64,000 nucleotides of DNA from Gemmatimonadota bacterium (GTDB taxonomy: Bacteria > Gemmatimonadota > Gemmatimonadetes > Palauibacterales > KS3-K002): NCBI GenBank assembly GCA_020344215.1, contig CP070815.1, positions 2,490,358-2,554,357 on the forward strand. The letters are read 5' to 3'. The notes below the pieces were generated by a model that had not been told where the DNA came from, did no database searches, and saw nothing but the letters and a program-made list of their open reading frames with translations. The position numbers and the translations under genes were made by a program. This document shows positions 10,701 to 57,731 of the stretch, piece by piece (within the stretch, counting starts at the first letter, position 1; each line of letters starts with the position of its first letter).

Positions 10701-13160
10701 CTATTCTTCCCGGAGCGCGATCACCGAGTCGATGCGCAGGGCACGCAGCGCCGGCACGTAACAGGCGACGAGCGCCGCAGCCGCCAGCAAGATCGCCACG
10801 CCGACGTAAGTCAGCGGATCGGTGGACGCGATCCCGAACAGCAGACTGGAGAGCAGCCGAGAGAGTCCCAATGCCGCGACCAACCCGAGTGCGATTCCGA
10901 TCATCGCGGGGGGCATCCCCTGCCGGACGATCTGCCTGATGACCTGCTCGTGGGTCGCCCCCATGGCGACGCGGACGCCGATCTCGGAGGTGCGGCGCGT
11001 GACCGAGTACGACTGGACGCCGTAGATCCCGGCGAGTGCCAAGACGATGGCCACGCCGGCGAAGACGGCCAGTGTGAATACATAGAAGCAGCGGCTCGCC
11101 ACGGAATCGCTGACGATCTCGTCCAACGTCTGGACGTTGGAGACCGGCAGCGTCGGATCGATGTCGGCGAGGATGGAGCGTACCGTGGTCAGGTTCGCCA
11201 TCGGATCGCCAGCAGTATGGACGACAAACTCCATCGGTGACCGGCCGGTGCCATAGTAGGGGAGGTAGACGGTCAGTGTAGGATCGTTGTCGAGCCCCCG
11301 CTCGCGCTGGTTCTCGACCACGCCGACGAGCTCGGCGACGAAGTCCTCCTGGCCGCGCCAGAGAATGACCTGCCGGCCGACTGGGTCCTCGCCGGGGAAC
11401 AGCTGCTCGGCCAGACGCTCGCTGATGATCGCCACCCACGGGTCGCCGATTTTGTCGCGCTCGGTGAAGGTCCTGCCCCTGAGGAGCTGGACGCCCATGA
11501 CGCGGAAGTAGTCACGGGTGACCAACCGCCAGCCCGCCCAAGGAACAACGTCTCCGGGCTCCTCCGGCCGACCGGCGGCGACGATTCCCATGCCCGTGTT
11601 GCCGCCGACGATCGGGCGCGAGTTCACGGCGGCGGAAAGCACACCCGGCATCGCGTTCAAGCGCTCGAGGAACAGGTCGCGAATCTCACCTCTGTGCGCT
11701 CTCTCGTATGACCCGGGCATGTTGACGGTGAAGACCAGGCGGTTCTCCGAATGGAAACCGCGATCGACTGTCAGCACCTCGAAGAAGCTACGGATGAGAA
11801 GGCCGGCGCCGATGAGCAGCATCAGGGAGAGGGCGACCTCTGCCGCCACCAGGGCGCCGCGCAGCCAGTTCTGGGTGCGGCTTCCCAACGCGCCGCGGCT
11901 GCCTTCCCGCAGCGCCGTATGGAAGTCGGTGCGCGGCAGCTGGGTCGCCGGGACGATACCCGACAAGACGCCGGTCAGCAGTCCAATCGCGATCGTGAAA
12001 CCGAGCACCCAGCCGTTGATCGCCACCTGGCCGGCGCGCGGAATCCCGCCCGGCTCGAGAGACCTGAACAGGTCGACACCCCAATACGCCAGCAGCAGCC
12101 CGGCGGCGGCGCCCAAAAGGCTCAGTACCAGCGACTCGGTGAGCATCTGACGGGCGATCCGCCGCCGATCGGCGCCCAGCGCGGCGCGAACCGCCGTCTC
12201 TCTCATCCGGCCCGTAGCGTTGGCCAGCAGCATGTTGGCCAGGTTCACGCAGGCGATCAGCAGCAGGAAACCCACCGCGCCCAGCAGGATCCAGAGCGCG
12301 CGCCTCAAGTCGGCGCCGGCCAGCCAGCTGCTCGCCGCCGGTTCGACGGTCACACCGATCCCTGCGTTAGCGTCGGGGTACATCTCCTCCAACCGCCGAG
12401 CGACGGCCCCGAGATCGGCGCGCGCTGCCTCGATCGAAACTCCAGGGGCGAGGCGGCCGATGACGCTCAGGTAGAAGCCGACGCGATCTTCATCCGGGTC
12501 ACGGACGAAGGGAACGAACACTTCCCTCGCATCGAGCCACGGTTCGCCCGCCGGTAACACACCGACCACCGTAAAGCTCTGTCCGTCGAGGGTCAGCGAG
12601 GTGCCGATGACCGCGGTATCGGCGGCGAAGCGGGTCCGCCAGTACTCGTACGACAGGAGCACGACCCCGCTCGCGCCGCCAGGCTCGTCCTCGCCGGGCA
12701 GGAACGTGCGGCCCAGCAGCGGCTGCACTCGCAGAATGCGGAAGAACCCGGCCGAGATGAGGCCCGTGCTCACCTGCTCAGGATAGCCGAACCCAGTGAG
12801 ATTGCGGCTCGTGTAGAACAGGGCCCCGAGATCCTCGAAGCTGCCGTTCTGCTCCCGGAAGTCCCAGAAGTTGGCAGGGTTCATCCCGGCGCGTGTCCAA
12901 CCGCGCTCGACCCGCGACTCCCACACGTGAACCAGGCGATCCGGGTCCTCGAACGGCAGCGGCGCCAGCAGCACCGACTGGACCACGCTGAAGATCGCGG
13001 TGGTCGCCCCGATGCCGAGGCCGAGTGTCACGAGTGCGACCGTGGTGAAACCGGGATGCTTGCGGAGCGAACGGAGCGCGTAGCGTACGTCCTGGACGAT
13101 CGATCCCATGAGCTGCCCGCTTTTCGGCGGAACGGTTGCGCGCACTGAACCAGTCATCAT
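10701..13160 (-). CDS. ADOP-family ABC permease (a paralogue of the upstream gene)
   Basis: The segment IVQDVRYALRSLRKHPGFTTVALVTLGLGIGATTAIFSV matches the ADOP N-terminus. Length is 819 aa. The start may instead be the internal Met at 13109. Confidence 0.85.
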   Translation of the reverse strand: MMTGSVRATVPPKSGQLMGSIVQDVRYALRSLRKHPGFTTVALVTLGLGIGATTAIFSVVQSVLLAPLPFEDPDRLVHVWESRVERGWTRAGMNPANFWDFREQNGSFEDLGALFYTSRNLTGFGYPEQVSTGLISAGFFRILRVQPLLGRTFLPGEDEPGGASGVVLLSYEYWRTRFAADTAVIGTSLTLDGQSFTVVGVLPAGEPWLDAREVFVPFVRDPDEDRVGFYLSVIGRLAPGVSIEAARADLGAVARRLEEMYPDANAGIGVTVEPAASSWLAGADLRRALWILLGAVGFLLLIACVNLANMLLANATGRMRETAVRAALGADRRRIARQMLTESLVLSLLGAAAGLLLAYWGVDLFRSLEPGGIPRAGQVAINGWVLGFTIAIGLLTGVLSGIVPATQLPRTDFHTALREGSRGALGSRTQNWLRGALVAAEVALSLMLLIGAGLLIRSFFEVLTVDRGFHSENRLVFTVNMPGSYERAHRGEIRDLFLERLNAMPGVLSAAVNSRPIVGGNTGMGIVAAGRPEEPGDVVPWAGWRLVTRDYFRVMGVQLLRGRTFTERDKIGDPWVAIISERLAEQLFPGEDPVGRQVILWRGQEDFVAELVGVVENQRERGLDNDPTLTVYLPYYGTGRSPMEFVVHTAGDPMANLTTVRSILADIDPTLPVSNVQTLDEIVSDSVASRCFYVFTLAVFAGVAIVLALAGIYGVQSYSVTRRTSEIGVRVAMGATHEQVIRQIVRQGMPPAMIGIALGLVAALGLSRLLSSLLFGIASTDPLTYVGVAILLAAAALVACYVPALRALRIDSVIALREE

Positions 13161-13311: not shown

Positions 13312-14757
13312 CTAGGGTTCGAGGGAGACGGCGCGGAAGCGGACGTCGGGGTCGGGCCGGCCGCGGGAGAAGCGCGGTGCCTTCAAGATCCGGCGATTGT
13401 CGCCCCAGGTCAGGTAGAAGCCCTCTTCGTCGACCGTGCCGTCGTTGTAGTCCCCCATGTAGCAGCTCTTGACCAGCGGGTCGAAGTTCGGATTGAGCGG
13501 CGGCACGTCGAACGACTCGGCGGTGACCCGCTGGTTGACCCAGCTGCGGCCGCCGTCGGTGGAGACGGCGCGGTAGACATCGATCTTCAGATTGGCGGAG
13601 TCGTGCCGGCGGTCGTAGAAGAAGACGCTCACCTGGCCACCCGGCCCCACATCGAGAACCGGCATGAAGTTGTCGTTGCGGGTCTCGTCACCGTTCGCCT
13701 TCACGGCGCGCCCCTTGACGATGTTGACGGGCTCGCTCCAGGAGGCGCCGCCGTCCGTCGAGCGCACCACGAAGACGTCGGAGGCATCACCCCGCCCCTG
13801 GCGACCGGGATCGGCGGCGAAGGCGATGTAGATGTCGCCGCTCCTCCGATCGACATCGATGCTGGGGAACTCGTTCACGCGAATGAAGCCCTTGAGCGCC
13901 GGTCGGTAGCAGGCAGACGTGGCGGACCGGTCGGCGATCCGCGCGAACGTGGCGGCGGCGTACTCCGTCCCCCACGTCTCACCGCCGTCGGTCGAACGCC
14001 GCACCCTGATGCGACCGCCCGTCATACCCGAGCGGTCTTCCCAGGCCACGTGCAGCTCGCCGCGTCTCCCCACCACCGGCATCGCACCCTGAACCTCGCG
14101 GCCGGAGGACAGCCGTTCAGCCCTCGAGTACGTCCTGCCGCCGTCGCTGGACCGGGAGAAGAGGATGCGCGCGGGACCGCGAGGCGGGAACTCGGTCCAG
14201 ACGAGGTAGACGTTCCCGTCGTAACGGCCACCGGTGGCATCGACCGCTATGAGTTCCTTGTCCTGGAAGCCGTTGGGCTCGAGGCCCGGGATCAAGACGG
14301 GCTCGCTGAAGGTCACCGCGCCCTTCGTCTCCGTCGACTTGGCGACGCCAACGTACGAGCGCGCCCGGGCGTCCAGCGCCAGAGTGGCGAAGTAGAAGTT
14401 GCCGTCCCGGTCAACGGCGAGCGCCGCGTCTCCCAGGTTGCGGCCACCCTTCGCCGGCGCCAGCACCCCGGCATCGCTGAACGTCGCCCCACCATCCAGG
14501 GAATAAGCGTAGCCCGTCATGCTGTTGCGACGCGTGAACTCACCGGAATCGTTGAAGCCGACGACCACCACGTCGCCGTGCCGGGCCACCGTGGTCTCGC
14601 TCTGGGTCGTGTTGTTGCCGCGATCAACCGACGGGTCGTTGACCAGTATGTCGTCGGCTGCCCCGAACCGCCCGCCATCCTCACCGCAGGTCACGAGCAA
14701 TCCGATCAAGACGAAAGCGCCGACCCTCCTGATCGCCGTCCTCACCCTTCTCGTCAT
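13312..14757 (-). CDS. BNR/Asp-box repeat lipoprotein (sialidase-like glycosyl-hydrolase fold)
   Basis: Four S/T-x-D-G-G-x-T/S-W/Y Asp-boxes are present: SDGGRTYS, STDGGETWG, STDGGASWS and STDGGRSWV. The lipobox is LLVTCG. The ORF-track N-extension (SYSYSSSSS) comes from reading through a repeat element. Confidence 0.65.
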   Translation of the reverse strand: MTRRVRTAIRRVGAFVLIGLLVTCGEDGGRFGAADDILVNDPSVDRGNNTTQSETTVARHGDVVVVGFNDSGEFTRRNSMTGYAYSLDGGATFSDAGVLAPAKGGRNLGDAALAVDRDGNFYFATLALDARARSYVGVAKSTETKGAVTFSEPVLIPGLEPNGFQDKELIAVDATGGRYDGNVYLVWTEFPPRGPARILFSRSSDGGRTYSRAERLSSGREVQGAMPVVGRRGELHVAWEDRSGMTGGRIRVRRSTDGGETWGTEYAAATFARIADRSATSACYRPALKGFIRVNEFPSIDVDRRSGDIYIAFAADPGRQGRGDASDVFVVRSTDGGASWSEPVNIVKGRAVKANGDETRNDNFMPVLDVGPGGQVSVFFYDRRHDSANLKIDVYRAVSTDGGRSWVNQRVTAESFDVPPLNPNFDPLVKSCYMGDYNDGTVDEEGFYLTWGDNRRILKAPRFSRGRPDPDVRFRAVSLEP

Positions 14758-14815
14758 CACGCTCGACGAGGATGAGTACGAGTACGAGGCTGACGATGAC
14801 GGAGACGGGGATCGA
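14740..14815. repeat. Copy R1, a degenerate member of the hexamer-repeat hairpin family (contains GAGTACGAGTACGAGG)
   Basis: It shares an ACGAGT hexamer tract with the copies at 24.85, 28.4, 49.4 and 57.6 kb. The arms ctcgtcatc and gatgacgga are partly complementary. Confidence 0.4.
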
Positions 14816-14832
14816 GGTTCGGGTCGCATCGA

Positions 14833-15348
14833 TCAACCCCCTAGGCGACGGGTCAGCGACTGGAGAACCGAGTTCTCCAGCGTTCCGTTGGAAGGGAGCG
14901 GCCGGCCGCCCAGCGGGCCCTCACCGCCGCGGACGGTGGCGATGATCGTCGGCGTCACCTCGACGCGAAGACCGCCGTCCGCCGCCGGCTTGAGGGTGAG
15001 CTCGAGCACGTAGCGTCCCCCCTCCTCACCGATGAAGTGCCTGTACTCCTCCGGTACCAGGCGCGCCAGCTCATCGGTGGCAAGTGCAACAGATTGGCTG
15101 TTCAGGAAAGCTTCCTGTTGGGTGGCAAACGCATCGACCAGGCTCGTGCCCAGCTCGGCGGCCACGTCGGCCGACAGCGCGTCGCTCTCGACCAGCACGG
15201 CGGTCAGCGCGTCGACGACCTGGCCCGGGCTCTGCGTGAAGACGGCGAAGTTCTGGAAATCAGTCATCTGGCCATCCGTCTCGTAGGAACAGGCGAGCGC
15301 CAGGGCGGCGAGTGCCGGAACGAGGCGCCTGAGTAGGGTAGCGGACAT
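14833..15348 (-). CDS. Hypothetical lipoprotein
   Basis: The signal and lipobox read LAALALACS. No family was recognised. Confidence 0.45.
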   Translation of the reverse strand: MSATLLRRLVPALAALALACSYETDGQMTDFQNFAVFTQSPGQVVDALTAVLVESDALSADVAAELGTSLVDAFATQQEAFLNSQSVALATDELARLVPEEYRHFIGEEGGRYVLELTLKPAADGGLRVEVTPTIIATVRGGEGPLGGRPLPSNGTLENSVLQSLTRRLGG

Positions 15349-15554
15349 GAATGACCGGCCTCCTGCTGGCGGTCTCGGAGGCGGCCGGGCGGCCCTCGAC
15401 AGCTACCCGGCAGTCCCCAGAGAAAAGCGTGCTTACTGGCGTCTCGTAAAGATAATACGATTCCCCGGCAGGGTGGGTTTCGGGCTGTTGGGAACCGCCT
15501 CAGGGCCCTAGTTTGCGACAGTCACCAAGCACCCCAGTACCGAGGAGCTGTCCG

Positions 15555-16502
15555 ATGCTCTGGCTTCTGCTGATTCCCGGCGTTCTTCTGCTAACGGCTC
15601 TCACGCTATTCACGCTGTGGATGGTCGGCGAGCGCGGGCACCTGATGCTCCCATCGACCCGGGCGCAAATGATGAGGTCCGGTGGCTCGTCGGGATCCGG
15701 CGGCAACGGGCATCGGGCTGGGTTGGCCAACGCTCTGCACGGCTACGTCTATGGGCGCTGGCCCTACCAGTACATCAAGATCGCGATCCGCTGGCTGCTC
15801 CCGTACATGTCACCGGAGCAGAAGCGCTGGTGGGCCGATCGCTATCACGGCAAGGTCCTGCCAACGGAGCTGGCGCGCCGGGTCATCAACCTGGACCACG
15901 ACATCAAGCGGACCGACCTCGAGCGGATCATCCCCTACCCGATGGCGCGGGACATCGTGCTCAAGGGCCCGCCCGGCGTGGTCCTGCTCGATTGCCCCTG
16001 TCGCGATGCGCGAGAGGACCCCTGCCAACCGACCGACGTCTGCATGATCGTCGGTAACGGCAGCTTCGTGCTCGAGCACCACCCAAACCGATCGCGGCGT
16101 ATCACGCAGCAGGAGGCGCTCGATCTGCTGCAGGCGGAGCACGAGCGCGGGCACATCCACACGGCCTACTTCAAGGACGCGATGGACAATCGCTTTTACG
16201 CGATCTGCAACTGCTGCTCCTGCTGCTGCGGCGGGCTCGAGGCGATGAGGAGGGGCGTCCCGATGGTCGCATCGTCGGGTTACGTGGCCCAGGTGGACGA
16301 GGAAGCGTGCATAGCCTGCGGAGACTGCGAGGTCGCGTGTCCCTTCGGCGCGCTAACGCTGAACGATACCGCCGAGGTGAGCTGGGAGAAGTGCATGGGC
16401 TGCGGTGTTTGCGAGGGTCAGTGTGAGACGGAGGCGATGCACCTGGTGCTCGACGAGCGCAAGGGCGTGCCGATGGATGTGCAGGCGATTGGAGTACGGT
16501 AG
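15555..16502 (+). CDS. Membrane-anchored 4Fe-4S ferredoxin-domain protein with an extra poly-Cys cluster
   Basis: GAGGAG lies 8 nt upstream of the ATG. An N-terminal TM helix is present. Two ferredoxin motifs CIACGDCEVACP and CMGCGVCEGQC are present, plus an unusual CNCCSCCCGG cluster. The ORF track places the start at 15513. Confidence 0.6.
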   Translation: MLWLLLIPGVLLLTALTLFTLWMVGERGHLMLPSTRAQMMRSGGSSGSGGNGHRAGLANALHGYVYGRWPYQYIKIAIRWLLPYMSPEQKRWWADRYHGKVLPTELARRVINLDHDIKRTDLERIIPYPMARDIVLKGPPGVVLLDCPCRDAREDPCQPTDVCMIVGNGSFVLEHHPNRSRRITQQEALDLLQAEHERGHIHTAYFKDAMDNRFYAICNCCSCCCGGLEAMRRGVPMVASSGYVAQVDEEACIACGDCEVACPFGALTLNDTAEVSWEKCMGCGVCEGQCETEAMHLVLDERKGVPMDVQAIGVR

Positions 16503-16618
16503 TCAGTGGTCGGTAATCAGTAGTCAGTAGTCAGTAGTCAGTAGTCAGTGACTGCCGACGACCGACGACCGATGACCGACCACCGACGACCGACTACCGA
16601 TTACTGATTACCGATTGC
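16500..16618. repeat. Inverted pair of heptamer tandem arrays: (AGTAGTC)n followed by (GACGACC/GATTACC)n, forming an imperfect hairpin of about 120 nt
   Basis: Period-7 tandem units are visible. The left block gtcggtaatcagta is nearly the reverse complement of the right block taccgattactgat. Confidence 0.6.
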
Positions 16619-16646
16619 TTCCACCCGCAAACCGAGCGCTCGAACC

Positions 16647-17273
16647 ATGACGGAACTTGAAGGTCTCTCCCAAGGCGACCTCTTCGCGCCGCCCGACCCG
16701 ATCCTGACGTGCACGACCCTGGATGAGCTGCACGGCCTGATCCGCGACTGCGTGAAGTGTGACGAGCTCGCCGAGTACCGCACCCAGGCCGTGCCCGGCG
16801 TGGGTCCTGCGAACGCCCGCGTCTTCTTCATCGGCGAGGCGCCGGGCCGCTGGGAGGATGAGCAAGGTGAGCCGTTCGTCGGCGACGCCGGCGCCTACCT
16901 GACCGAGCTGCTGGAGAAGATCGGGCTCAACCGGTCCGAGGTCTTCATCAGCAACATCCTGAAGTGCCGGCCACCGGACAATCGGAACCCGAAGACACAG
17001 GAGATGGACGCCTGCGCGCCCTACCTGGAACGGCAAATCGAGCTTATCGGGCCCGCCCTCGTCGTGCTACTGGGACGGGTGGCGCTGGAACGCTTCTTCC
17101 CGAAGGAGAAGATCACCGAGGCCGCCACGAAGCCGCGCCGCAAGGCGATCGGCGGTCGCCAGATCACCTTCCTGCCTCTACTCCATCCGGCGTTCGGAAT
17201 ACGGCGGCAGGACCTGAAGCCCGAGATCGAGCAGCAGTTCTGGAAGATCAGGGAGCTGCTGGATCAGCTCTAG
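16647..17273 (+). CDS. Uracil-DNA glycosylase, family 4
   Basis: The family motif GEAPGRWEDEQGEPFVGDAG is present. Length is about 200 aa. Confidence 0.85.
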   Translation: MTELEGLSQGDLFAPPDPILTCTTLDELHGLIRDCVKCDELAEYRTQAVPGVGPANARVFFIGEAPGRWEDEQGEPFVGDAGAYLTELLEKIGLNRSEVFISNILKCRPPDNRNPKTQEMDACAPYLERQIELIGPALVVLLGRVALERFFPKEKITEAATKPRRKAIGGRQITFLPLLHPAFGIRRQDLKPEIEQQFWKIRELLDQL

Positions 17274-22535: not shown

Positions 22536-22583
22536 GTTCGTAGTTTTGAGCGGCACGCTCGTGAGCGGCCGCTTGACAACTTG

Positions 22584-22628
22584 GCACCCCCCGGCCAGAG
22601 CACGTTGGCCGGGGGGTGCTGGGTTTTT
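22584..22628 (+). terminator. Rho-independent terminator: a perfect 14-bp stem (gcaccccccggcca/tggccggggggtgc) followed by a T5 run
   Basis: It lies 49 nt after the stop of the outer-membrane protein gene and is followed by gggttttt. Confidence 0.75.
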
Positions 22629-22731
22629 CAGCTGGGGCACTTTGCTGCCGCCACCCGTCGGCATGTCGCTTGGCCCCCGTTCATCACCGCGCCCCAGTCA
22701 TCATCCTTAGCGGCCCGAGGACTATAGGGCG

Positions 22732-24843
22732 ATGAGGACCGACACCACTGCAGCCGCTACCTTGGTGCTGATACTCGCCGCGGCACCCGCCGCTGCTCAG
22801 CGACCCGTCGGCGTCCCGGCTGACAGCGTCTTTCTCTACAAGCTCGAGGGGATCTCGGTCACCGTCTCACGCTCAGCCCTGGAGGTGGAGCGGCTTCCTT
22901 ACGCCGTCGGCGTGCTGGGCGCGGAGGACGTCCAGGGGCTCGAGGCCACGATCTCGCTGGACGAGTCGCTGGCCCAGATTCCTGGCGTGTTCGTCGACAA
23001 CCGGTACAACTTCGCCCTCGGGGCCCGCATCTCGATCCGCGGATTCGGCGCCCGCACCCAGTTCGGTGTGCGCGGCGTCCGCATCATCCAGGACGGGATC
23101 CCGCTGACGCTACCCGACGGCCAAGCGCAGACAGGCAACCTCGACCTGGGCGCCGCCGGTCGCATCGAGGTGATCCGCGGTCCCGCCTCGGCACTGTACG
23201 GCAACGCCAGCGGCGGCGTGATCAGCGTGCAGACCGAGTCGGCACCGGCGGCGGCGCTGCGGCCCGAGTTCCGGGCACTGGCCGGCGGCTACGGCAACGG
23301 CCGCTCATACCAGAAGTACGACTTGAAGCTCGGAGGGCAGCAGGGGCGCTTCGACTACCTCGGTCACCTCGCCTACTTCGACAGCGACGGCTTCCGCACG
23401 CACAGCGAGGCGACGTACACGCTGCTCAACGCGCGCCTCCGCTACGAGCTGGACAGGAACGCCGACCTCACCCTGGTGGTCAACTACGCGGACGCGCCGC
23501 AGGCCGAGAATCCGAGCACGCTGACCGACTCTGTCGCCAGGGTGAAGCCGGACACGGTCCGCGACATAGTGCTACCGCCGGAGGAATGCCCGCCGGACCC
23601 CGGGTTCGGTGGCTGCCAGAACCTGGGCGAGGAGTTCCGACAGGGGCAGGCCGGGGTCACCTACCGCCGCAGGTTCGGGGGCACTCACGAGATCTCGCTC
23701 ATGGGCTACGGCCTGTTCCGTGAGCTGGAGAACCGGATCCCCTTCCGGCTCATCGAGCTCGACCGGCTCGGGGGCGGAGCGCGGGCGGAGTACCGCCTCA
23801 CCCCGGCGGAGGGTCGCCTGGCCCGCTTGACCGCCGGGCTCGACCTCGACAGCCAGTGGGACGACCGAGTCGAGCTCGTACGCGACGACGAGACGGTCGG
23901 GCCGGCGGCGCTCGACCAGGATGAGAGGGTCACGGCGCTTGGGCTCTTCGCGCACGGCGGCCTGGTTCTCGCCTCCGGGCTCGAGCTGACGCTCAGCCTC
24001 CGCTACGATCGTGTCCGCTTCCAGGTGGATGACCGCCTGGTCACGGGCGACGATCCCGACGACTCCGGAACGCGCAACATGGACCAATGGAGCCCGATGG
24101 TGGGGCTGAGCTACAGCTACGCAACCTGGCTCAACCTCTACGGCAACGTTGGGCGATCGTTCCAGACGCCCACGACCACCGAGCTCACCGACACGCTCGG
24201 TGGTTTCAACGCGGAGTTGCAGCCCGAGCGCGCCACGAACTACGAAATCGGTGTGAAAGGCACTGCCGGCGGACGGGCGAGCTACAGCCTCGCCCTATTC
24301 CACACCGATGTGGAGGACCAGCTCATCGGTTCCGCGGCGGCCGGGACCGAGCGTGTCCTTTTCGAGAACGCCGGCTCGAGCGTGCACGAAGGGATCGAGG
24401 TGGGGATCTCAGCGCTCGTCGCCCCCAGCTTGACTGCGACGGCCGCTTATACGTACTCCGACTTCAAGTTCGAGGAGTTCGTCACCGAGGCCGGTGATTT
24501 CAGCCGGAACCGGGTCCCGGGTGTCCCGCCGCACCGGCTGCACGCGCGTCTCGGCTACGCAGGCGGCCGGGGACTCTCCGGTTCGCTGCAACTGACCGCG
24601 GCCGACGACCACTTCGTCGACAACGCGAGCGAGAGCCGCAACGACGGCTACACCGTCGTCGACCTGCGTCTCGGATTCACCGCGCACACCCCCGGCTTCG
24701 AGATCGCACCCTTCCTGGGGCTCAACAACCTCTTCGACGAGCGCTACAACTCATCGGTCGTCGTCAACGCGATCGCCGGTCGCTACTACGAACCGGCTCC
24801 GGGGCGGAACCTCTACGTTGGCGTCCGCCTGAGCACCCGGTAG
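22732..24843 (+). CDS. TonB-dependent outer-membrane receptor
   Basis: A plug-domain motif (DESLAQIPGVFVDNRYNFALGARISIRGFGAR) is present. Length is 703 aa with beta-barrel periodicity. Confidence 0.85.
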   Translation: MRTDTTAAATLVLILAAAPAAAQRPVGVPADSVFLYKLEGISVTVSRSALEVERLPYAVGVLGAEDVQGLEATISLDESLAQIPGVFVDNRYNFALGARISIRGFGARTQFGVRGVRIIQDGIPLTLPDGQAQTGNLDLGAAGRIEVIRGPASALYGNASGGVISVQTESAPAAALRPEFRALAGGYGNGRSYQKYDLKLGGQQGRFDYLGHLAYFDSDGFRTHSEATYTLLNARLRYELDRNADLTLVVNYADAPQAENPSTLTDSVARVKPDTVRDIVLPPEECPPDPGFGGCQNLGEEFRQGQAGVTYRRRFGGTHEISLMGYGLFRELENRIPFRLIELDRLGGGARAEYRLTPAEGRLARLTAGLDLDSQWDDRVELVRDDETVGPAALDQDERVTALGLFAHGGLVLASGLELTLSLRYDRVRFQVDDRLVTGDDPDDSGTRNMDQWSPMVGLSYSYATWLNLYGNVGRSFQTPTTTELTDTLGGFNAELQPERATNYEIGVKGTAGGRASYSLALFHTDVEDQLIGSAAAGTERVLFENAGSSVHEGIEVGISALVAPSLTATAAYTYSDFKFEEFVTEAGDFSRNRVPGVPPHRLHARLGYAGGRGLSGSLQLTAADDHFVDNASESRNDGYTVVDLRLGFTAHTPGFEIAPFLGLNNLFDERYNSSVVVNAIAGRYYEPAPGRNLYVGVRLSTR

Positions 24844-24980
24844 CTCCCGCTCCTTCCTCCCGCTCGTACTCCCGCTCGTAATCGTGATCGTGATCCTACT
24901 CGTACTCGCGCTCCCGTATTTCCGAGTACGAGTACGAGGACGAGTACGAGCAGGAGGAGGAGGGGGAGGAGGAGGGGGGG
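24844..24980. repeat. Copy R2 of the hexamer-repeat hairpin family: CTCCTCCCGCTCGTACTC...CGTAATCGTGATCGTGATC...loop...GAGTACGAGTACGAGGACGAGTACGAGCAGGAGGAGG
   Basis: This is an imperfect inverted repeat of about 130 nt. Its arms are period-6 units of CGTNAT and ACGAGN. It begins at the TonB-dependent receptor stop codon. Confidence 0.65.
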
Positions 24981-28404: not shown

Positions 28405-28466
28405 CCCCTCCTCCTGCTCCTGCTCGTATACGATCACGATTACGAGCAAGAGCAGGAGGAGAGAGG
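28405..28466. repeat. Copy R3 of the hexamer-repeat hairpin family; it fills the convergent moeA/etfA intergenic gap exactly
   Basis: cccctcctcctgctcctgctcgtatacgatc pairs with gatcacgattacgagcaagagcaggaggagagagg in a hairpin centred on GATC. Confidence 0.65.
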
Positions 28467-36415: not shown

Positions 36416-36814
36416 TCAGAGTGGGACCGGACGATCGCGTTCCGAACCCACGATGCAGAAGAAACCGAACGGCTCATCACCTGAGGCCCGGAACTGGTGT
36501 GGGATGTTCGGCGCCACGTAGACGACATCGCCGTAGCTTACCGGCTCCCTCCGACCACCCAACCGTACCTCACCCCGCCCACGGATAGCGACGACGACGT
36601 GCTGGTGCGCGTGACGCTCGTAGGTCGTGAAGCCACCGGGCTCGACCTCGAAGTAGCGCAGGTGGAACGGCGTTTCCTCCGCCGGTCCGACGAGTTGCTG
36701 GCGCGTCACGGCGCTCCAGTCCTCACCGGGCTCTTTGTACGCGACCGGTGTCACACCCTCCCAACGGTAGTGCTCGAAACGTAGTACCCTGCTATTCACT
36801 CTGGGTTGCTCCAT
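36416..36814 (-). CDS. Cupin-domain protein
   Basis: Cupin His-rich motifs are present (YERHAHQHVVVAIRG ... VYVAPNIPHQF). The start was set at an internal Met; the upstream ORF-track extension reads through a repeat. Confidence 0.6.
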   Translation of the reverse strand: MEQPRVNSRVLRFEHYRWEGVTPVAYKEPGEDWSAVTRQQLVGPAEETPFHLRYFEVEPGGFTTYERHAHQHVVVAIRGRGEVRLGGRREPVSYGDVVYVAPNIPHQFRASGDEPFGFFCIVGSERDRPVPL

Positions 36815-36830
36815 CGCGGTGTAATCTGGT

Positions 36831-36934
36831 TGCGAATGGCGAATGTAGAATGTCGAACGCCGAATAACGAACCGAGGTCTTGTAAAGATACTCCTTCTAC
36901 ATTCGGTATTCGGCGTTCTACATTCGATATTCGG
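36831..36934. repeat. Compound inverted repeat of 17-mer units (CCGAATAYCGAATGTAG-like), two per arm, around an AT-rich 24-nt spacer
   Basis: The left block cgaatgtagaatgtcgaacgccgaata and the right block tattcggcgttctacattcg are reverse complements. The unit ctacattcgRtattcgg is repeated directly. Confidence 0.55.
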
Positions 36935-36960
36935 AGCGCAGCCATCCCTCGTTGTCAGCC

Positions 36961-38037
36961 TCAAATAGCCTTGACCTCGACGCCCAATCCGTGCGGATAT
37001 ATCACGGCGCGCAGCGAGTCGTCGTGCGTCTTCGCCATCCGCAGCGCTTCGCCGACCCCGTCCAGCCCGAAGCGGTGTGTGATGAGGTCCTCGACCTCGA
37101 ACTCGCCGCTGGCCAGCAGGTCGAGCGCGTCGCGCGTCTCGATCGGTCCAGCCGAGTAGCTGTGGGTAATCGTTACTTCTTTGAAGTACAGGTCGTGCGG
37201 CCGGTAGGCGACCGTTGCCTCCGGGGGTGTCGGAGTGTAGACGAGGACGACACCACCCGGCGCGGCGTGGGCCAGGCCGTGTTCGATCGCATCGACCGCG
37301 CCGGGCATGACGATCACTTTCTCCGCACCCCAGCCGCCGGTCGCCTCCGACATCTTCTCATCGAAGTCGGCGGCGCCCGGGTCGAGGGCGACGTCGGCTC
37401 CTATACCCTCGGCGTACTCGCGGCGAATCGCCACCGGATCGGTAACCACGATGGGCTCGGCCCCGAGGTAGCGAGCCAGGCGAACGTTCAAGAGCCCCAT
37501 CGGCCCGGCACCGATCACCCAGACGCTGACCCCCGGCAGCAGGTCTATCTTGCCGAAGGCACGCAGGCTGCAGGCGAGTGGCTCGATGAACGCCCCTGCC
37601 TCATCCGAGACCTCGTCAGGCAGCTTGAGCACGTCGACGCGCACGATCTCCGCGGGCACCCGCACGAACTCGGCGAAGCCACCGGGATCGAGCGACGTCT
37701 CACGGAAGCGCCGGCACGACGTGTACAGTCCGCGCTGGCAGAGCCGGCAGGTCAGGCAGGGCACGTGATGGTGGAAGAAGACGCGATCCCCGACGTCCAG
37801 GTCCCCCACTTCGGGCGTCACCTCGTGCACGATCCCCACCGGCTCGTGACCGAGGACGACCGGCACCTTGCGGCTTACGTACCAGTCCATGGCGTCGCTT
37901 GAGCAGACACCGCAAACGCTCACCTGCACCCGGATGTCGCCCGGCTCGAGCTGAGGCAGCGGCATCTCCTCCACCCGCACGTCTTCGAGTGAGTAGGCGC
38001 GCGCCGCGTTCATCATCGCTACGCTCTTCTTGTTCAT
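36961..38037 (-). CDS. Zinc-dependent medium-chain alcohol/polyol dehydrogenase
   Basis: The catalytic-zinc ligands (CGVCSSD ... GHEPVG) and the structural-zinc Cys cluster (CLTCRLCQRGLYTSC) are present, along with a GxGxxG motif. Confidence 0.8.
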   Translation of the reverse strand: MNKKSVAMMNAARAYSLEDVRVEEMPLPQLEPGDIRVQVSVCGVCSSDAMDWYVSRKVPVVLGHEPVGIVHEVTPEVGDLDVGDRVFFHHHVPCLTCRLCQRGLYTSCRRFRETSLDPGGFAEFVRVPAEIVRVDVLKLPDEVSDEAGAFIEPLACSLRAFGKIDLLPGVSVWVIGAGPMGLLNVRLARYLGAEPIVVTDPVAIRREYAEGIGADVALDPGAADFDEKMSEATGGWGAEKVIVMPGAVDAIEHGLAHAAPGGVVLVYTPTPPEATVAYRPHDLYFKEVTITHSYSAGPIETRDALDLLASGEFEVEDLITHRFGLDGVGEALRMAKTHDDSLRAVIYPHGLGVEVKAI

Positions 38038-49380: not shown

Positions 49381-49480
49381 CTCATCGCCATCACCGTCCT
49401 CGTCGTCATCGGCACCCCTGTCGTGCATCGAGCACGATTACGATTACGAGCACGATTACGAGGATGAACGCGATTAGAGG
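49381..49480. repeat. Copy R4, a degenerate member of the hexamer-repeat hairpin family (CGAGCACGATTACGATTACGAGCACGATTACGAGG), lying between the cytochrome c 3' end and the csoR promoter
   Basis: Period-6 CGATTA/CGAGCA units are present. The left arm cctcgtcgtcatcg is only partly complementary. Confidence 0.5.
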
Positions 49481-56898: not shown

Positions 56899-56965
56899 AA
56901 TCAAAAAGGGGGGATTCCTGGAGTTTCTTGGGAATTCTCGAACGCCGATTCGAGAATCCCCAAAA
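56899..56965. terminator. Two adjacent hairpins (ggaatc-aaaaagggggg-gattcc and gggaattctcgaa-cgccg-attcgagaatcccc) between convergent rho and the downstream phosphoribosyltransferase gene
   Basis: Seen directly in the sequence, with A/T runs flanking the hairpins. Confidence 0.5.
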
Positions 56966-56969
56966 AACT

Positions 56970-57578
56970 TCAACATTGGTCGTCGAGCCCTTCGTACTCC
57001 GGGTTGACAACGAGTCGCCCGGACTCCTCGTCCACCACTTCTCTATCCCACGGAAAGACCACCGTTCCCTCTGCGGCCAGCGCGTAGTAGTCGGGCTCGT
57101 ACCCACCGACGTGGACTAGTGAGGTGGCGGTGCGCACCTCCGCCGGGTCGACATCGCGTACGGCGGCGAGTGCCAGGCGCAGCGTGTCGCCGGTTTCACA
57201 GATCTCGTCGACCAGCAGGACCCGCCGCCCCGCCAGCTGCGGGGGCGCGGCCGAGAGGATTTCCGGGCGCGAGCGCCTGCCGGCACCCTCCTCGCGCCGG
57301 GTGATCTTGATAGCGTAGAACTCCTTGCCCAACATGGCGGCGATCACCGCGCCGGGTATTACGCCCGCCGCCGCGATCCCGACCACGGCCTCAGGGTCGT
57401 AGTCGCGCGCCACCCGCAGCGCCAGGGCACGGCAGAGTTCACCGAATAGCTCCCAGGAGAGCTCGAACGCTCCCTCCTCCTCGCGGATCTCGGGCAGGAT
57501 CGGCTCGTCTACGATGGCGCACCCCCTGATCGCTGAGAGAATCGCATAGCGGATAGACGTACTAAATAATCCCCCCAC
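56970..57578 (-). CDS. Type I phosphoribosyltransferase (purine PRTase-like)
   Basis: The PRPP-binding motif RRVLLVDEICETGDT is present. The GTG start is uncertain. Confidence 0.6.
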   Translation of the reverse strand: MGGLFSTSIRYAILSAIRGCAIVDEPILPEIREEEGAFELSWELFGELCRALALRVARDYDPEAVVGIAAAGVIPGAVIAAMLGKEFYAIKITRREEGAGRRSRPEILSAAPPQLAGRRVLLVDEICETGDTLRLALAAVRDVDPAEVRTATSLVHVGGYEPDYYALAAEGTVVFPWDREVVDEESGRLVVNPEYEGLDDQC

Positions 57579-57616
57579 CCAGAAACCGGCAACCGGCCTG
57601 AGCTCAGCCCTTCCAT

Positions 57617-57731
57617 CTCCTGCTCGTGCTCGTAAGCGTAAGCGTGATCGTATTCGTAATCGTAATCGACCACGCGCCGGGCAGCGATTGTGACTGCGAT
57701 TACGATCGCGATTACGAGCAGGAGCAGGAGG
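57617..57731. repeat. Copy R5, the best-preserved member of the hexamer-repeat hairpin family: ctcctgctcgtgctcgtaagcgtaagcgtgatcgtattcgtaatcgtaatcg - loop - cgattacgatcgcgattacgagcaggagcaggagg
   Basis: A 35-50-nt inverted repeat made of CGTAAT-type hexamers around a 28-nt loop, lying in the divergent region upstream of gyrA. Confidence 0.7.

Follow-up and report, generated by a model that had tools for sequence, protein, structure and literature searches.

A hairpin built from two inverted arrays of heptamer tandem repeats was characterized in a 64-kb stretch of DNA (hereafter the window) from a Gemmatimonadota metagenome-assembled genome (MAG) with a GC content of 66%. It lies between a 4Fe-4S protein gene and a uracil-DNA glycosylase (UDG) gene. 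The element can be identified with high confidence as an intercistronic, slippage-driven hairpin of inverted heptamer microsatellites, of the type of short tandemly repeated repetitive (STRR) and long simple sequence repeat (LSSR) sequences, with units of the GTAGNCA/NNACTGA family. The best overall explanation, to which about even confidence was given, is that this slippage-driven hairpin is transcribed as an intercistronic stem-loop and, we infer, acts as a dispensable modulator of expression.

Structure and folding of the heptamer element

The whole element was delimited by inverted repeats, predicted folds and an ungapped hairpin scan. Its parts were as follows.

16497-16619, no strand: whole inverted-array hairpin, about 120 nt
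16499-16549, plus strand: left (5′) array, 7.3 copies of GTAGTCA (Tandem Repeats Finder, 86% matches, score 81)
16541-16575, no strand: apex region, with a loop that is not fixed because the arm registers lie 7 nt apart
16555-16616, plus strand: right (3′) array, about nine units of period 7 (Tandem Repeats Finder, scores 71 and 49)

The original prediction, made from the sequence alone, had placed inverted heptamer arrays of about seven and nine units immediately 3′ of the 4Fe-4S stop codon, and the 7.3 and about 9 units returned by Tandem Repeats Finder agreed with it. The left array contained a perfect run of 4.3 GTAGTCA copies (16520-16549), which supplied UAG in all three frames with a TAG every 7 nt; its outer units were the variants GTGGTCG and GTAATCA. 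The right array consisted of two overlapping rows, CCGACGA in 6.6 copies (16555-16600) and ACCGATT in 7.0 copies (16568-16616). Its units could be read as NNACYGA (CGACCGA, TGACCGA, CCACCGA, CTACCGA, TTACTGA, and TTACCGA), and the array was thus a diverged, GC-enriched complement of the left array. The sequence GTAGTCAGTAGTCA, equal to two GTAGTCA units, was searched with up to 3 mismatches. Of the 10 matches obtained, where 1.8 were expected, every one fell within 16499-16611. A degenerate pattern search found no second (GTAGTCA)n array anywhere in the 64-kb window.

The arms 16497-16549 and 16561-16613 were 74% complementary, and alternative pairings shifted by multiples of 7 were equally good. 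In the ungapped pairing check, each of five registers had 35–41 Watson–Crick pairs. The loop was at 16541-16548 in the minimum free energy (MFE) fold of the plus strand and at about 16550-16574 in the best ungapped register of the minus strand.

Folding was investigated for the region 16490-16630 with 200 dinucleotide shuffles as controls. The MFE was −58.7 kcal/mol (z = −6.4) for plus-strand RNA, −75.8 kcal/mol (z = −7.7) for minus-strand RNA, and −29.5 kcal/mol (z = −4.9) for DNA, and none of the 200 shuffles reached an equally stable fold for any of these molecules. The earlier description of the arrays as approximately reverse-complementary, forming a long imperfect stem, was consistent with these folds and with the 74% arm complementarity. 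The minus strand folded better because A·C mismatches of the plus strand turn into G·U pairs; it had 41 Watson–Crick and 7 G·U pairs, compared with 40 and 1 on the plus strand. The ungapped hairpin scan scored 25 on the plus strand and 31.5 on the minus strand, among the top five of the window. When one to three units were gained or lost in silico, the hairpin still folded at −56 to −80 kcal/mol. It survives changes in its own length because both arms are periodic and many pairing registers are available. The covariance models of Rfam 15 gave no match at the gathering score, either in the window or in seven related loci.

Gene setting, turnover and slippage at the Fe-S/UDG junction

The hairpin and its two neighbouring genes were arranged in the following order.

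15513-16502, plus strand: gene of a membrane-anchored 4Fe-4S dicluster (Fe-S) protein (Pfam Fer4, 4.9e-13)
16620-16646, plus strand: non-repetitive spacer of 27 nt that separates the hairpin from the UDG start codon, without a U-tract and without a sigma-70-like promoter
16647-17273, plus strand: gene of the UDG superfamily (Pfam UDG, 1.1e-34)

The TAG stop codon of the Fe-S gene (16500-16502) was the TAG of the first heptamer, and the distance from the last repeat unit to the UDG ATG was 30 nt. A 100% identical Fe-S protein on record (P0001) came from an NCBI Gemmatimonadota MAG. Sequence scans around 16500-16650 showed neither a sigma-70-like promoter nor a U-tract terminator, and no T run followed the stem on either strand. 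The order of Fe-S gene and UDG gene was the same in loci L080–L083. In the closest ortholog, L005 (88% amino acid identity), the Fe-S stop codon overlapped the UDG start codon (ATGCCTGA, L005 815-845), which suggested co-transcription. Overlapping or abutting codons were likewise observed in L022 and L023. Judged from these sequences, the Fe-S gene and the family-4-like UDG gene very probably form an operon, which appears to be conserved across Gemmatimonadota. The hairpin sits between co-oriented genes; their co-transcription, which would match the hupS-hupL type of cyanobacteria, is suggested by the L005 overlap.

The same spacer was compared in about 39 orthologous Fe-S loci. Many of them had a hairpin of short tandem units directly 3′ of the Fe-S stop codon. 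Units of the GTAGNCA family (complement NGNCTAC) were present at this spot in L001, L002, L080, L083/L085/L086, L036, and L014. The hairpin of L080 had TGATCAG/TAATCAG against CTGATTA/CTGACTA, and those of L083, L085, and L086 had GTGATCA/GTAATCG against ACTGATT; the unit was GGCAGTA in L036 and GTAGACGA, with a period of 8, in L014. Other units occupied the same position in L004 and L081 (GAACATCG), L009 (TGAACAnn), and L013 (AATATCC). L082 retained a decayed relic only. The hairpin was absent, with the UDG gene immediately next, in L003, L005, L007, L008, L015, L017, L022, L023, and L029. These comparisons suggested that the element is old at the Fe-S/UDG junction but subject to rapid turnover and liable to loss. 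A fold-back artefact of assembly was ruled out by the homologous hairpins at the same place in independent assemblies of relatives.

In another Gemmatimonadota MAG (L012 9712-9898), the divergent intergenic region immediately 5′ of the Fe-S gene also contained a 187-nt hairpin. Its left arm was (GACAGCC)n and its right arm (GTCGGCT)n, the opposite arm order to the GACGACC-type right arm of the window.

The original prediction had also considered the arrays prone to slipped-strand change. Variation was investigated in a relative whose protein P0006 has 78% amino acid identity, using eight contigs from different samples. The unit numbers of the hairpins in L083, L085, and L086 were (n,m), (n,m+1), and (n+1,m+1), with 0–1 single-nucleotide polymorphism over about 1.9 kb. 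Compared with L083, L085 had one substitution and one extra ACTGATT in the right arm; L086 had one substitution, an extra GTGATCA in the left arm and an extra ACTGATT in the right arm. Between L084 and L083 there were 2 substitutions in 11,014 nt (99.98% identity), and L084 ended inside the left array; this 43.9-kb metagenome contig terminated in the heptamer array at 10976-11014. The three alleles indicated that unit indels locally outnumber point changes and that both arms change. Assembly error is an unlikely source of these indels because the arrays were shorter than assembly k-mers. On the evidence of the aligned contigs, slipped-strand variation is real in the homologous hairpin of this relative, and the expectation of slippage was borne out there by alleles of ±7 nt in one arm or in both.

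No unit indels were found in two other orthologous hairpins (P0034, 6 contigs; P0039, 2 contigs), which had only 2–3 perfect units. This fits a slippage rate that rises with the length of the perfect run. The perfect run of the window (GTAGTCA, 4.3 copies) was similar in length to the variable run of L083 (5 copies). A species-specific 24-nt anchor had no match in the metagenome collection, and exact-protein look-ups for the window UDG and P0001 gave no contig on record.

Repeat-built hairpins in the window and in other genomes

Metagenomes were scanned for 3.3 copies of GTAGTCA, and at least 120 contigs (L090–L209) with GC contents of 38–73% were obtained. The counts in this paragraph hold among the matches listed. 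An inverted partner within 120 nt was found in 22 of 120 contigs. The arm order was 5′-(GTAGTCA)n...(TGACTAC)n-3′ in all 25 pairs and never the reverse. Reverse complementation leaves this order as it is, and the polarity is therefore intrinsic. Between co-oriented genes, the hairpin typically spanned from −18 to +17 nt of the upstream stop codon to 4–20 nt before the next start codon. GTAGTCA on the coding strand adjoined stop codons, by 45:16 for solitary arrays and 32:1 for hairpin arms. CTACTGA on the coding strand was located just before start codons, by 25:4 for solitary arrays and 21:2 for hairpin arms. All open reading frames (ORFs) of at least 90 amino acids were taken for these orientation counts, which is crude, and the counts are approximate; the bias was large nevertheless. 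ORF ends were distributed about evenly over the first, second, and third in-frame TAG of the array. The window element obeyed both the post-stop and the pre-start rule. Such rules, being specific to the coding strand, argue for a role at the level of RNA or translation.

In high-GC contigs, a conserved module of about 60 nt was present in the loop of the GTAGTCA/TGACTAC hairpin. The module is not palindromic and runs in the same direction as the genes on either side. It had the form GTAG-CGCyCCGCGC...CTGACGCyGACAC...GAwTC...CGAAGgTCTTT-CTACTGA, and it recurred in successive intercistronic spacers. The sites were L103 11294-11416 and 12411-12534, L149 624-769, L135 2330-2467, L117 6730-6838, and, on the minus strand, L153 5327-5435 and 7860-7983. 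The module had no Rfam match and occurred neither in the window nor in the Gemmatimonadota loci.

For other hairpins in the window, a sliding-window RNAfold scan was uninformative at 66% GC (8119 of 42198 scanned segments passed) and was replaced by scans for ungapped stems and for inverted pairs of Tandem Repeats Finder arrays. The ungapped-stem scan showed five long hairpins with periodic arms.

16505-16619: the heptamer element
24845-24980: period 6, starting 1 nt after the stop codon of ORF 22732-24843
28405-28464: period 6
36829-36937: period 7, CGAATGn
57616-57731: period 6

The heptamer element had been described as a family distinct from the period-6 hairpins. As a description this holds, with a second period-7 hairpin of a different unit at 36829-36937. 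That hairpin had the unrelated unit GCGAATG/CGAATGT against CATTCGn and was located between the convergent ORFs 36497-36784 (plus) and 36961-38037 (minus). Units of the GAAYRTC type, like those of 36829-36937, were observed in the post-Fe-S hairpins of L006, L019, L004, L009, and L020.

The arms of the three period-6 hairpins were CTCGTA/TACGAG, TCGTAA/TTACGA, and TCCTCC/GGAGGA. Their 5′ arms were C-rich (CCUCC-like) and their 3′ arms G-rich (GGAGG-like), a polarity of base composition opposite to that of the heptamer hairpin. Further hexamer arrays were observed at 14766-14788 and 49429-49480. The N-terminus of the longest reading of ORF 13312-14829 (minus) ran through a hexamer-repeat hairpin. 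The true start is probably an internal Met before TRRVRTAIRR, so this hairpin would lie between the gene and ORF 14833-15348. Ordinary GC-rich hairpins with a T or A run, resembling canonical intrinsic terminators, were present at 22571-22632, which a simple terminator scan missed, and at 56918-56973, between convergent genes.

The scan based on Tandem Repeats Finder gave about 22 adjacent inverted arrays in 635 kb of Gemmatimonadota DNA and 3–4, in L058 and L061, in 586 kb from other phyla. Inverted tandem-array pairs were thus about 6-fold denser in Gemmatimonadota DNA, and many touched stop codons. Heptamer inverted-array hairpins with other units were observed in a Chloroflexi MAG (L058 5446-5505, CGTGATG/CATCACG) and in a Thermodesulfobacteriota MAG (L061 1604-1730, TAAACTC/GAGTTTA). 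According to the original prediction, the absence of both length variation and other copies would have made the element a one-off local duplication. The window indeed held no second (GTAGTCA)n array, but such arrays and hairpins were common in other genomes.

Classification and possible roles

STRRs are highly repeated in each cyanobacterial genome, whereas the window had one (GTAGTCA)n locus in 64 kb. Hairpins of 7-bp STRRs are located between the co-transcribed hupS and hupL genes and were called 'not unusual in filamentous cyanobacteria'; their roles in transcript stability, translational coupling, and pausing or termination were only proposed (PMC2670836). The repeats downstream of hupS in Nostoc PCC 7120 are ttgtcag in three copies and ccactgactactgac (PMC2408588, Table 3). 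They are the same heptamers as in the window and, as far as the table is legible, have the order 5′-GTNGTCA...CTGACTA-3′. The window element shares with the STRRs of Nostoc, Anabaena, and Lyngbya hupS-hupL the tandem 7-bp intergenic units and the capacity to form a hairpin. Its host is a Gemmatimonadota with 66% GC rather than a heterocystous cyanobacterium, and its right arm has drifted to the GC-rich CCGACGA. With 7 + 9 units, the stem was unusually long compared with about 4 + 4 in most metagenome examples, among the matches listed.

Direct TAACTGA repeats were reported in marine Beggiatoaceae, Cyanobacteria, and Bacteroidetes (MacGregor 2015, PMC4679880). These arrays are mostly forward and right before start codons, usually ending 1 nt before the start, and provide stops in all frames; inverted sets were 1 in 170 (PMC4679880). 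The units CTACTGA, which is the complement of the left arm, and TTACTGA are nearly the same as TAACTGA, and the units of the window differed from it by 1–3 mismatches. Both kinds of array are intergenic, point forward toward the downstream start, carry stop codons in every frame and can extend into the 3′ end of the preceding ORF; in contrast to TAACTGA arrays, the window array had an inverted partner and ended 30 nt before the start. LSSRs, as summarised in PMC4679880 from Mrazek et al. 2007, have units of 5–11 nt, and 7-nt units were proposed to be intrinsically slippage-prone, so that polymerase slippage would favour heptamer LSSRs. Measured against that summary, the window element is likewise a non-coding tandem array of 7-nt units, longer than chance, and probably evolves by slippage, as indicated by the 7-nt indel alleles in the homologous arrays of L083, L085, and L086. 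The LSSR concept, as far as that summary conveys it, is without an architecture of inverted pairs or a polarity of arms.

Intercistronic hairpins that stabilise or process transcripts include REP/BIME sequences in Escherichia coli operons (malE-malF) and RNase III sites between the early genes of phage T7. The window element resembles these as a large stem-loop between cistrons, the mode of action proposed here. Theirs, however, are conserved, family-specific sequences and not microsatellite units, and processing or stabilisation at the window element is a proposal only. The phase-variable simple sequence repeat (SSR) loci of host-adapted pathogens share the change of copy number by slippage; the window array, by comparison, is outside any ORF or promoter spacer, has a predicted effect that is graded, and has neighbours of housekeeping type. 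Literature searches on hairpin repeats in Gemmatimonadota found no specific report.

Several other classes were rejected. REP/BIME elements or miniature inverted-repeat transposable elements (MITEs) did not fit, with no other copy in the window, unrelated units in the other hairpins and no flank duplication relative to L005. The interrupted stem of about 50 pairs with no T run after it did not match the intrinsic terminator class. A CRISPR array was excluded by the 7-nt units and the lack of spacers, a riboswitch or known small RNA by the lack of an Rfam match, and a coding repeat by the period of 7 and the stops in all frames.

The evidence supports independent growth, shrinkage and homogenisation of each arm by replication slippage in 7-nt steps. 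In the proposed mechanism, the spacer would be transcribed within the two-gene mRNA and fold into a long stem-loop, whose 5′ arm would give the upstream gene its stop codon and back-up UAG codons in all three frames. The stem may keep the untranslated spacer double-stranded and serve as a post-transcriptional insulator between the cistrons, either as a barrier to 3′-exonucleases or as a processing site. It could thereby tune the relative expression of the Fe-S and UDG genes. Gain or loss of units would shift the stem length gradually, giving modulation rather than an on/off switch.

Several observations weigh against a role of the stem-loop in the mRNA. The fold of the mRNA strand was weaker than that of the antisense strand (−58.7 versus −75.8 kcal/mol), and the plus-strand stem was broken by an A·C mismatch every 3–4 nt, which would make it a poor classical RNase III substrate. 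Among the matches listed, the sense strand was the more stable in only 7 of 22 co-oriented hairpins, so G·U-tolerant selection on the mRNA strand was not visible. The arms over-expanded past their partners in L151, L168, and L100 (14–17 versus 3–4 units), as unconstrained microsatellites would be expected to do. The UDG ribosome-binding region was outside the stem, and coupling by unmasking is thus not indicated in the window. The absence of a hairpin in L005, the closest ortholog at 88% amino acid identity, together with the relic in L082, showed that the element is dispensable.

Much of the same evidence would also suit a neutral or selfish by-product, a less probable explanation but a serious rival. 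Slippage would occur wherever it is tolerated, between the stop codon and the next ribosome-binding site, and inverted partners would arise by template switching or fold-back synthesis without any function. The loss in L005 and decay in L082, the different unit sequences and periods of different lineages at the same spot, the independent and very unequal expansion of the arms and the lack of a sense-strand G·U advantage are consistent with this explanation. So are the about equal numbers of ORF ends at the first, second, and third TAG among the matches listed, as if the array simply overran the end of the ORF. The proposal that 7-nt units are intrinsically slippage-prone (Mrazek et al., as cited in PMC4679880) points the same way. 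The orientation rule would then be a mere constraint. UAG-U, for instance, is a better stop context than UGA-C, which would matter where an array overruns an ORF. However, the 25:0 polarity and the pre-start biases of 25:4 and 21:2, among the matches listed, are hard to obtain from stop context alone. The presence of an inverted partner no more than 120 nt away in 22 of the 120 contigs, again among the matches listed, the roughly 6-fold higher density of inverted pairs in Gemmatimonadota, and the recurrence and persistence of the hairpin in the same spacer across lineages 20–30% apart in protein also argue against functionless slippage.

The strict orientation could instead reflect a cross-phylum RNA 'grammar', in which (GUAGUCA)n after stop codons and (CUACUGA)n before start codons are recognised by the ribosome itself or by a factor with heptad periodicity; this is improbable. 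Where both elements occur in one spacer, they would pair and either join the stop to the next start or mask both elements. Pairing would couple or insulate the cistrons, and slippage would set its strength. The 25:0 polarity among the matches listed and the stop and start rules would be the footprint of such a system. The UAG triplets recognised by HutP are spaced 7 nt apart, and an RNA-binding protein with HutP-like logic is by analogy a possible model for the reader.

Termination of transcription was considered very unlikely. A factor-independent or bidirectional terminator would end the Fe-S transcript and leave the UDG gene to be expressed separately. The start of the hairpin at the stop codon fits this, as do other repeat hairpins between convergent stops (28405-28464, 36829-36937, L029 7620-7708, and L030 6395-6452), and termination was considered for the STRR hairpin downstream of all0769 (PMC2670836). 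But neither strand had a U-tract, no terminator-like call was made at 16500-16650, only 27 nt without a promoter-like site are left before the UDG start, the gene pair overlaps in L005, and canonical-looking terminators are present elsewhere in the window (22571-22632 and 56918-56973). An element acting at the DNA level, such as iteron-like head-to-head protein sites, a cruciform or replication-pausing structure, or the ends of a mobile element, is slightly less probable still. The strict head-to-head polarity resembles transposon ends, the orthologous spacers are polymorphic for presence and absence, and the loop module of about 60 nt at several loci of one high-GC taxon (two each in L103 and L153, and one each in L149, L135, and L117) suggests duplicative spread. 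Orientation rules that follow the coding strand and the positions of stop and start codons, however, point to RNA or translation rather than to a symmetric DNA process. The arms were only 71–75% complementary with a DNA fold of only −29.5 kcal/mol, the window had no second copy, target-site duplication or conserved module, and units differed between hairpins of the same genome.

The original prediction had suggested a contingency or phase-variable locus, in which the unit number would switch the UDG or Fe-S gene on or off, and this part of it was not supported. The polymorphic heptamer copy number in the homologous hairpin of the relative speaks for such a switch, and SSRs in 5′ untranslated regions can tune expression, at least in the examples cited in PMC4679880 and PMC12721329. 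The arrays, however, were outside the ORFs and any detectable promoter, a change of one to three units left a stable hairpin, the element was missing in the nearest ortholog, and the neighbours, which encode an Fe-S protein and a glycosylase of DNA repair, are of housekeeping type rather than genes for surface or restriction functions. This makes a switch the least probable of the explanations considered. A slippage-driven, transcribed stem-loop that modulates expression was retained at the even confidence given above.

Repeat-built hairpins probably cause contig breaks in MAGs and account for spurious N-terminal extensions of ORFs in high-GC MAGs. Heptamers of the STRR, TAACTGA, and LSSR kinds were recognised decades ago in cyanobacteria and a handful of further groups, without an established function. 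The present locus adds the same unit family and an inverted-array hairpin in Gemmatimonadota, a phylum where it was not noted before. The hairpin has stayed at a single conserved gene junction despite quick turnover, and among related populations both arms show alleles that differ by 7 nt. The polarity and the post-stop and pre-start rules are the most interesting by-product of the analysis and would narrow the possible functions.

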